Source: Escherichia phage ECO111 5-P. From it: DNA of 59,207 nucleotides. Both the position numbers and the translations under genes were made by a program. Shown piece after piece: positions 2,094-2,495 of the stretch. The notes beneath the pieces are model-generated. The model was given only the letters and a program-made list of their open reading frames with translations. It was not told the origin of the DNA and made no database searches. Position 1 is the stretch's first letter; the number at the start of each line of letters is the position of its first letter. The stretch lies in the sequence record OR844767. One strand, written 5' to 3'.

Positions 2094-2495
2094 TTAAACG
2101 TCGTCTTCTTCGCCGTTACCGCCTTCGTCTTTTTCAGCCAGTTTGGCTTCACACATTTCAACGATTTCGTCGAAGTGTTCTTCCTTCGCTTCCGCGACTT
2201 TGGCGAGGCCGAAGTGAGCGGTGATTTTCTTGGCTTCCGGAGCGCCGAACGCGTCTTTAACCGCAACGACAGCCGCTACTACTTCGTCTTTGGTGTGTTT
2301 CGGCTTGGCCGCTTTAGCACCGCCTTTCGCGCCGCCTTTAGCACCGCCTTTGGTGGTGGTGGTTTTTTCGGTGGTTTCGCTACCAGCGTCAGCGGAAGTG
2401 TTCACCGCGCCGCCTTTCAGTGCTGCCAGAACGCCTTCCAGCAGGGTGTTAGTTTTTTGTTGTTCAGCCAGCAGTTGTTCGAAGATACCAGACAT
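2094..2495 (-). CDS. hypothetical Lys/Ala-rich protein with KGGAK repeats and acidic C-terminus
   Basis: 133 aa; ATG at 2495 with GGAG RBS; internal KGGAKGGAKGGAKAAKPK repeat; ends ...GNGEEDDV; first gene downstream of the divergent promoter region. Confidence 0.55.
   Translation of the reverse strand: MSGIFEQLLAEQQKTNTLLEGVLAALKGGAVNTSADAGSETTEKTTTTKGGAKGGAKGGAKAAKPKHTKDEVVAAVVAVKDAFGAPEAKKITAHFGLAKVAEAKEEHFDEIVEMCEAKLAEKDEGGNGEEDDV

Follow-up and report, generated by a model that had tools for sequence, protein, structure and literature searches.

What is encoded by the first gene of the replication operon in Chi-like phages, and what does the acidic C-terminus of its product do? We examined this locus in Escherichia phage ECO111 5-P (sequence record OR844767), using the whole available stretch of 59,207 nucleotides (the window). 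The gene in question, the homolog of chi_044 of phage Chi, occupies positions 2094-2495 and encodes a 133-amino-acid protein on the minus strand, MSGIFEQLLAEQQKTNTLLEGVLAALKGGAVNTSADAGSETTEKTTTTKGGAKGGAKGGAKAAKPKHTKDEVV...GNGEEDDV. In phage Chi it is annotated as a 'hypothetical protein' and no functional or expression study of chi_044 in Chi-like phages was found in the literature. An original prediction made from the sequence alone described an open reading frame (ORF) with a KGGAK repeat and acidic ends, all of which are present in the translation, and proposed either a DNA-binding or nucleoid-associated factor or another client of a DEV-type tail system. The reading we tentatively favor is that the chi_044 homolog is an abundant, early, non-enzymatic accessory protein, an adaptor or regulator, within a network of proteins docking through acidic tails. 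This reading follows from the conservation of its helix, domain and tail, its fixed genomic position, its expression signals and the co-variation of its tail with those of other proteins.

Acidic tails ending in valine are found on nine proteins of the ECO111 5-P genome. Nine genuine genes end in [DE][DE]V where 0.16 would be expected (Poisson P of about 1e-11), namely those for the chi_044 homolog (EEDDV), the exonuclease, the protein that binds single-stranded DNA (SSB), the primase, the small terminase subunit TerS, an RdgC-family protein, a DUF7609 protein, a PHROG 8098 protein and a DUF7443 protein. The tails are encoded using all four Val codons, both Asp codons, both Glu codons and two different stop codons, and are followed by unrelated DNA, which indicates selection acting on the peptide and rules out a repeat at the DNA level as their source. 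The other tailed proteins whose function can be recognized fall into DNA-binding classes (SSB, primase-helicase, exonuclease, TerS, RdgC-like and ParB-like).

The terminal residue co-varies by phage lineage across the tail-bearing proteins of the same genome. In V-type lineages (Chi-like, Klebsiella, Enc34, SAP012 and the partner proteins of Providencia phages), the exonuclease, SSB, primase and TerS end in V, as does the chi_044-family member, which ends in I in Providencia phages. In L-type lineages (SS2019XI, UF_RH7, MA11, FoX4, AH2, L023 and L030-L033), the same four proteins end in L, which is also the terminal residue of a ParB-like protein and others; the chi_044-family member likewise ends in L, and in M in FoX4. 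In Cronobacter phage JC01, both the chi_044-family member and the SSB end in ...DDDF. The terminal residue does not track the host, with V found in Salmonella, L in Pectobacterium and F in Cronobacter phages, and the component reading the tails is consequently inferred to be phage-encoded. The suggestion that the chi_044 homolog is a further tail client is thus supported by the nine tailed genes, peptide-level selection and lineage co-variation. Two small proteins of related phages carry ...DDDIPF, the canonical tip of bacterial SSB (L017, Salmonella phage SAP012, ORF from 4533; L033, ORF 8916-9182), one located at the chi_045 position and one at the VRR-NUC position. This suggests that a second, host-directed tail type exists alongside the phage's own.

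To define the family, we searched a profile of 114 homologs exhaustively against 1.84 billion cluster representatives using a cut-off of E <= 1e-3 and identified at least 282 representatives, nearly all 110-150 amino acids long and matched end to end. They share a four-block plan consisting of an N-terminal helix, a basic disordered linker, a three-helix domain and an acidic tail. There is no Pfam entry for the family. Of 150 representatives, 144 have a C-terminus in which an acidic or Gly-rich stretch is followed by a final L (80), I (50), M (11) or V (3). Scans of GTDB genomes and JGI metagenomes with the distant subfamily as query found no relatives.

The genomic position of the family is fixed. 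In every context examined (Chi, SeF6b, IMG/VR Chi-like loci, Providencia Stilesk, Pseudomonas SS2019XI and UF_RH7, Xanthomonas FoX4, Burkholderia AH2, Pectobacterium MA11, Cronobacter JC01, a P. aeruginosa prophage and three metagenomic contigs), the chi_044-family gene heads the block before the DUF2800 exonuclease gene, sometimes with a chi_045-like gene in between. The exonuclease gene is followed by those for an Enc34-type SSB, a polymerase, VRR-NUC and an SNF2 helicase, while the primase gene is divergent. This synteny spans the genera Chivirus, Redjacvirus, Maxdohrnvirus, Newforgelanevirus, Jacunavirus, Ahduovirus and Foxquatrovirus. The proposed placement as first gene of the replication operon therefore holds with respect to position in all contexts, but in the window a terminator-like hairpin separates it from the next gene. 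The polymerase slot is filled by two unrelated enzymes (ca. 16% mutual identity) while the chi_044 family, exonuclease and SSB remain constant. The second polymerase type is found at L005 7349-9400, L024 6270-8324, L030 12369-14396 and L032 6190-8193, as compared with 56742-58814 in the window, and sometimes bears an acidic tail itself (...GEDL, ...DDDL).

The chi_044 homolog is a genuine gene. PHROG 7721 is matched over the full length (E = 1.7e-64, residues 1-133 against profile positions 1-138) and 160 close homologs were found, among which all linker indels keep the reading frame. Codon changes in the conserved domain are mostly synonymous (15:7, 21:8 and 21:15 in three comparisons) and amino acid changes are fewer in the minus frame than in any antisense frame. 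An antisense ORF of 144 amino acids at 2079-2513 on the plus strand was rejected as the true gene based on substitution pattern and homology, and is an artefact that reflects the codon composition of a gene rich in repeats. It is longer than the genuine gene and would be picked by a longest-ORF rule. No known RNA family was detected at the locus or its hairpin using Rfam, the top E-value being 0.44 and far below the gathering score.

The conserved parts of the protein are the helix, the domain and the tail, with the sequence and length of the linker being least conserved. Hardly any variation is seen in the first 26 residues or in residues 64-121 of 114 Chi-like homologs, and the C-terminus is ...EEDDV in almost all cases, with ...EEDEV in one and ...DEEI or ...DDEI in Providencia phages. 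We ran AlphaFold twice, using the Chi-like and then the broad alignment, and obtained the same picture both times. The predicted fold is all-helical and does not contain an oligonucleotide/oligosaccharide-binding (OB) fold. The predicted N-terminal helix (ca. residues 4-28) is strongly hydrophobic family-wide at positions 5, 9, 12, 19 and 22/23 and keeps a polar Asn/Thr at 15/16, a heptad-like pattern that suits helix-helix packing. The linker (ca. residues 29-65) and the last residues are predicted to be disordered, with predicted local distance difference test (pLDDT) values below 50-55 and below 50, respectively. The C-terminal domain, with the motif KPKhT..EV.AA...VKD..G...AK..I...G..K.A.I....D., is predicted to form three helices at residues 69-83, 85-94 and 108-128 (pLDDT 83-88) and is 54-61 residues long in 133 aligned members (mean 55.6). 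Of two longer proteins, P0174 (187 amino acids) and P0326 (234 amino acids), one contains two tandem copies of this domain and the other, on a 1.7-kb contig, has a precomputed Pfam match to Endonuclease_7 (PF02945), indicating that the domain may act as an independent module.

The KGGAK repeat is a lineage-specific version of a variable linker. It lies in KGGAKGGAKGGAKAAKPK, residues 49-66, and had been described as a basic histone-like repeat with acidic flanks. Both repeat and flanks exist, but the repeat is not conserved and the protein is net acidic with an isoelectric point (pI) of 5.0. In Chi-like alignments, the exact triple KGGA(K) repeat is restricted to ECO111 5-P and its nearest relatives while the linkers of other phages instead contain TKGKTTAKGKTT, KKGGTSKSTK and similar sequences. 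Residues 27-63 of the 114 Chi-like homologs form a variable, indel-rich A/T/G/K segment of 28-43 residues. Throughout the family, the linker keeps its composition (A 25%, K 18%, T 15%, G 11%, P 8%) but not its sequence, repeat unit or length. An exact Lys-containing mini tandem repeat of their own is present in the linkers of 28% of members, for example KPAAAG x3 (FoX4), AAKGT x3 (P0145) or AEPKK/AAPKK (P0224). KGGAK consequently represents one of many independent versions, and the most fitting view of the Lys-rich linker is that of a basic spacer with constrained composition, which may contact DNA weakly or pair with its own acidic tail or the tails of partners.

Charge is distributed unevenly along the protein. 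In the chi_044 homolog, the N-terminal helix carries a net charge of -2, the first and second halves of the linker -1 and +4, and the tail about -7. Among Chi-like homologs, whole-protein net charge ranges from -6 to -11 and linker net charge from 0 to +3. The mean values for 133 aligned family members are -1.5 (helix), +3.7 (linker), -2.9 (domain), -5.3 (tail) and -5.9 (whole protein). Histone-H1-like bacterial proteins, for example those with AlgP-type KPAA repeats or the C-terminal tails of mycobacterial HU, are strongly basic and contain long repeat arrays. They share with the chi_044 family short Lys/Ala/Gly/Pro tandem repeats in a disordered segment (KGGAK, KPAAAG, AEPKK/AAPKK). Here, in contrast, a protein that is acidic overall contains a basic stretch of only ca. 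15-20 residues (net +3 to +4), and its repeat is not conserved.

These data bear on whether the chi_044 homolog could be an abundant protein that binds DNA non-specifically through its Lys-rich segment and coats or organizes phage or host DNA, with the acidic tail only modulating this activity. Such a histone-like or nucleoid-associated role would be in line with the conserved richness of the linker in Lys/Ala and its net positive charge in 98% of the 133 members, with the independent emergence of Lys mini-repeats, with a promoter and terminator layout suggesting high expression and with the DNA-binding nature of the other functionally recognizable tailed proteins. Moreover, the acidic tail of the Enc34 SSB modulates DNA binding (PMC5686142). 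However, every member examined is net acidic, the folded domain is itself acidic, the linker contains only ca. 7 Lys/Arg per ca. 35 residues and is the least conserved part, and no HU/IHF, H-NS, Lsr2, helix-hairpin-helix (HhH) or other DNA-binding family or fold was detected. The DNA-binding part of the original prediction thus retains the Lys-rich composition but neither a conserved repeat, a basic protein nor a DNA-binding fold, and we consider a histone-like role unlikely. A weak, tail-masked DNA contact of the linker is possible based on its composition.

Searches for relatives of known function were negative. Using the window protein and 133 family members as queries, no family with known function was found in Pfam, NCBIfam or PHROGs; the weaker PHROG matches (408, 3709, 38276, 18562 and 13934) are, like PHROG 7721, all of 'unknown function'. 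Profile searches against PDB sequences returned nothing significant, the best matches being an archaeal ribosomal S15 N-domain (E = 0.34) and an Hsp60-like protein (E = 3.8), and sequence, profile and fold searches revealed no relative of known function for the three-helix domain. A tblastn search with the family consensus sequence gave no matches, probably due to low-complexity masking. Some GenBank and UniRef records nevertheless suggest a RecT-type single-strand annealing protein (SSAP). The labels 'RecT protein' or 'putative RecT' are found on chi_044-family homologs of Salmonella phage 37 (NC_029045), Klebsiella phages KPN N137 (NC_048670), N98, Soft and Salado, and Xanthomonas phage XAP3 (OQ756160) and have spread to UniRef without sequence or profile support. 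These labels alone speak for an annealing protein, whereas neither Pfam RecT nor any other SSAP family is matched, hhalign against lambda Bet is negative (probability 0.2%), a length of 133 amino acids is about half that of RecT or Red-beta, and the module already contains a gp2.5-like annealing SSB. RecT identity is already refuted at the sequence and profile level and we give it practically no credence.

The operon organization indicates that the gene may be expressed early and at high levels. A sigma70-like promoter precedes the start codon, and Chi, Stilesk, Seifer, Enc34, SAP012, UF_RH7 and JC01, which are enterobacterial relatives and one Pseudomonas phage, have comparable near-consensus sites 46-65 nt upstream. 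Directly downstream of the stop codon lies a terminator-like element, with a GC-rich hairpin at the equivalent position in Chi, Stilesk, Enc34, SAP012, Seifer, L020, L023, JC01, UF_RH7, AH2 and FoX4. Stem sequences differ between lineages and the U-run is weaker in UF_RH7, AH2 and FoX4. To judge from its sequence, this element would act as a leaky terminator or attenuator. No other promoter-like sites were found in the window sequence between the chi_044 homolog and the exonuclease gene. From promoter, hairpin and the lack of another promoter, we infer a short early transcript that is abundant and partly reads through into the replication genes, and an abundant chi_044-family protein. The early, abundant role proposed in the original prediction is in keeping with this promoter and with a hairpin and U-run kept in most lineages. 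A second sigma70-like promoter (2667-2695, plus strand) lies back to back with that of the chi_044 homolog in a 180-bp divergent region, both with the consensus -35 element TTGACA, and the region between the chi_044 homolog and the helix-turn-helix (HTH)/primase operon is likely an early regulatory switch region.

An early gene at this position could also encode an anti-host factor, a small acidic inhibitor or decoy directed, similar to Gam, against RecBCD-type nucleases or mimicking the SSB tail, and protecting the linear or concatemeric phage DNA worked on by the neighboring exonuclease/annealase pair. The gene is the first behind a host-type sigma70 promoter, has its own terminator and encodes an acidic and helical protein directly upstream of an exonuclease and an annealing SSB, as gam does relative to bet and exo in lambda. 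In addition, phages of this group place host-type DDDIPF tips on other small proteins. On the other hand, strict synteny and high conservation over many host genera are unusual for counter-defense genes, and the tail type follows the phage's own proteins instead of the host and differs from the bacterial DDDIPF tip. Homology to lambda Gam was rejected (hhalign probability 0.1%, no Pfam match), and the similarity is retained as a positional analogy only. A Gam-like role is a possibility drawn from gene position, and we regard an anti-host function as distinctly improbable.

The nature of the tail receptor is best approached through related systems. In phage T7, the gp2.5 tail anchors on the front basic patch of the polymerase and a gp4 tail peptide has been visualized bound to gp5 (PDB 6P7E) (PMC12339929). 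In the Enc34 SSB crystal, the acidic tail occupies the OB-sheet groove of a neighboring molecule, and tail removal changes DNA specificity and permits dsDNA binding (PMC5686142). This crystal is the only direct evidence on tail contacts within this phage group. A polymerase serving as universal receptor is made less plausible by its non-orthologous replacement, by tails on some polymerases and by the lack of an evident basic patch.

One further candidate reader is the chi_044 homolog itself. It could read tails via its three-helix domain and/or basic linker and, being oligomeric and carrying its own tail, form a multivalent network in which proteins of replication, recombination and packaging are concentrated. 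No other universally conserved protein of the module lacks an assigned activity, and the chi_044 homolog is probably abundant and combines a putative oligomerization helix, a basic disordered segment, a domain with conserved K64, K66, K80, K89 and K99, and a tail. Residue 92 in helix 2 co-varies with the terminal residue (Leu with I-tails, Ile with L-tails and Thr with V-tails; z = 7 versus shuffles), a signal uncorrected for phylogeny. However, the net acidic domain is unfavorable for binding acidic tails, oligomerization is only putative, and the domain resembles Red-beta no more closely than it does dozens of generic three-helix bundles, with a negative profile comparison. We see a slim chance that the protein is such a hub. 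It is just as much a long shot that the family forms the oligomeric center of a phage-wide 'C-terminal tail code', reading or presenting tails with a lineage-specific terminal residue. Such a hub might conceivably assemble SSB, exonuclease, primase-helicase, TerS, RdgC-like, ParB-like and head-module proteins into one factory, although we doubt it. Equally speculative is that this would be a replication-recombination-packaging factory, possibly a condensate, whose specificity co-evolves within each phage lineage.

In the accessory-protein reading that we favor, the tail would be a docking peptide of the kind common to the phage's SSB, exonuclease, primase-helicase, TerS and others, and the chi_044 homolog would bind, or compete for, the same phage-encoded receptor site as the other tailed proteins. 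The putative receptor is most likely the ssDNA-binding groove of the gp2.5-like SSB or, alternatively, a basic patch on another replisome component. The N-terminal helix and three-helix domain could supply oligomerization and/or a second partner. When undocked, the tail probably folds back onto the basic linker, which otherwise may provide weak, non-specific DNA contact. Higher expression than that of the downstream enzymes, expected from the separate promoter and attenuating hairpin, would fit a stoichiometric and not a catalytic role.

Several observations weigh against this account. The co-variation of terminal residues rests on a handful of clades, with shared ancestry contributing, and in Providencia and FoX4 the terminal residues of the family members (I and M) differ from those of their partner proteins (V and L). 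In the SSB, exonuclease and primase tails, the acidic run is preceded by a Trp that the tail of the chi_044 homolog lacks. A tail is also present on TerS and a head-module protein, which a purely 'replisome' model does not explain. As for a receptor, the polymerase is replaced in some lineages by an unrelated, sometimes tail-bearing enzyme and is thus unlikely to be universal, and the stretch aligned to the T7 gp5 basic patch is not basic, in an alignment of only ca. 19% identity. Lastly, the hairpin alone is not statistically exceptional (z = -1.1), and SS2019XI has no terminator-like element because its chi_044-family gene abuts the exonuclease gene.

Comparison with known systems shows where the family departs from them. 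Bacterial SSB uses a disordered linker and acidic tip, ...DDDIPF, as an interaction hub for docking and self-masking. It resembles the chi_044 homolog in its modular build, with a folded region, a disordered linker of low complexity and an acidic tip whose last residue is hydrophobic. However, bacterial SSB is one tailed protein with many pocket-bearing clients, whereas many proteins are tailed here. Their tip sequences differ and DDDIPF is found on other proteins of related phages, indicating that the two tail types are kept apart. T7 gp2.5 and gp4 likewise carry a short disordered acidic tail with one terminal hydrophobic residue. In T7, several replication proteins share this tail and a common site on gp5 reads it (PMC12339929). 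T7 tails end in F, as do the ...DDDF tails of JC01. Unlike in T7, at least nine proteins are tailed here, among them TerS, an RdgC-like protein and one from the head module, the terminal residue is aliphatic (V, L, I, M) and lineage-specific, the chi_044 homolog possesses neither an OB fold nor an enzymatic domain, and the polymerase is not a convincing receptor. The Enc34 ORF6 SSB belongs to the same phage group, operon and tail type and ends in WDEDEV, as deduced from a cloning primer (PMC5686142). Its tail is disordered, contacts the neighboring OB groove and modulates DNA binding (PMC5686142). In contrast to the chi_044 homolog, it is an OB-fold ssDNA-binding protein and sequence similarity is limited to the tail. 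Lambda Gam is likewise a small acidic protein of helical structure that is made early and encoded just upstream of an exonuclease/annealase pair. It differs by lacking any sequence or profile similarity; the chi_044 family has a phage-type docking tail and is conserved far more widely and rigidly with the replication module.

That the family exists, though uncharacterized, is already known, and acidic-tail docking is an established principle. What appears to be new is the breadth of the network, with about ten proteins and reaching into packaging, its lineage-specific terminal residue and the small all-helical non-SSB protein that heads the module and bears a tail. Chi-like phages (Casjensviridae and relatives) commonly infect Salmonella, Klebsiella, Pseudomonas and plant pathogens, and phage-therapy cocktails make use of them. 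The replication module of these phages, composed of DUF2800 exonuclease, gp2.5-like SSB and polymerase, is widespread, with its head gene sometimes mislabelled RecT. The tails offer a concrete and inexpensive experimental handle on the way in which proteins of replication, recombination and packaging locate one another. If one site reads all tails, the T7 gp2.5/gp4-polymerase paradigm would grow from two to about ten proteins and extend into DNA packaging.

Table 1. Coordinates of the chi_044 homolog, its parts and signals, and the other genes discussed (positions in the window).
Feature	Position	Strand	Remarks
chi_044 homolog, coding sequence (studied gene)	2094..2495	-	133 amino acids, ATG to TAA; PHROG 7721 and wider uncharacterized family
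N-terminal helix, residues 3-28	2412..2489	-	pLDDT 82-92 with broad alignment; family conservation
Disordered low-complexity A/K/T/G linker, residues 29-65	2301..2411	-	Net basic, length variable, indel-rich
12-nt tandem repeat encoding the KGGAK repeat	2312..2351	-	3.3 copies, 85% match, Tandem Repeats Finder score 66; lineage-specific
KPKHT arm and three-helix domain, residues 66-123	2127..2300	-	Nearly invariant among Chi-like phages
Disordered acidic tail DEGGNGEEDDV, residues 124-133	2097..2126	-	Ends in single hydrophobic residue
Shine-Dalgarno GGAG	2505..2508	-	9 nt 5' of ATG; read from sequence
Sigma70-like promoter	2548..2577	-	TTGACA, 18-nt spacer, CATACT; ca. 52 nt 5' of ATG
Terminator-like element	2054..2078	-	8-bp GC-rich stem and UUCG loop (2059-2078), UUUUU (2054-2058); directly 3' of stop
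chi_045-like gene	1702..2031	-	PHROG 8318, function unknown; second in block; without acidic tail in ECO111 5-P
DUF2800 PD-(D/E)XK exonuclease	369..1709	-	Downstream; C-terminus DDDDEV
Prim-Pol/DUF5906 primase-helicase	3015..5597	+	Divergent; C-terminus WDDEV
DUF7609 protein	12029..12430	+	C-terminus DDDEV
RdgC-family protein	13573..14649	+	C-terminus DDDDEV
PHROG 8098 protein	21968..22684	+	Function unknown; C-terminus EGDEV
DUF7443 small protein (chi_058 homolog)	46684..46977	-	Adjoins major head protein; C-terminus AEDEV
Small terminase subunit TerS (DUF1441)	53845..54414	-	C-terminus DDDEV
SNF2 helicase	54401..55960	-	C-terminus WDDEE
PolA-type polymerase	56742..58814		C-terminus ...FYRKD
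gp2.5-like SSB (DUF2815, Enc34-type), C-terminal part	58848..59183	-	C-terminus WEDEV

The first 9 kb of the window are 90-95% identical to Chi-like Salmonella siphoviruses (PK4, SeF6b, Chi and others) over 88-98% of their length. Positions 1-77 and 59131-59207 form an exact 77-bp terminal direct repeat, an assembly overlap, indicating that the window represents a complete circularly assembled Chi-like genome of ca. 59.1 kb. The gp2.5-like SSB gene is split by the window ends and runs across their junction. The minus-strand gene order is chi_044 homolog, chi_045-like gene, DUF2800 exonuclease, junction, gp2.5-like SSB, PolA, endonuclease, SNF2 helicase, TerS and TerL, with a small HTH-like gene and the Prim-Pol/DUF5906 primase-helicase gene divergent from the chi_044 homolog. 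Chi-like DNA whose translation is ca. 89% identical to the chi_044 homolog product is also present in short, unannotated records assigned to phages of Gram-positive hosts, namely OR849940 (Staphylococcus phage SA 1298 Kay, 4384 bp), OR847083 (Listeria phage LM 4-11-1, 5930 bp) and similar Enterococcus records, which are probably contamination or mislabelled submissions.

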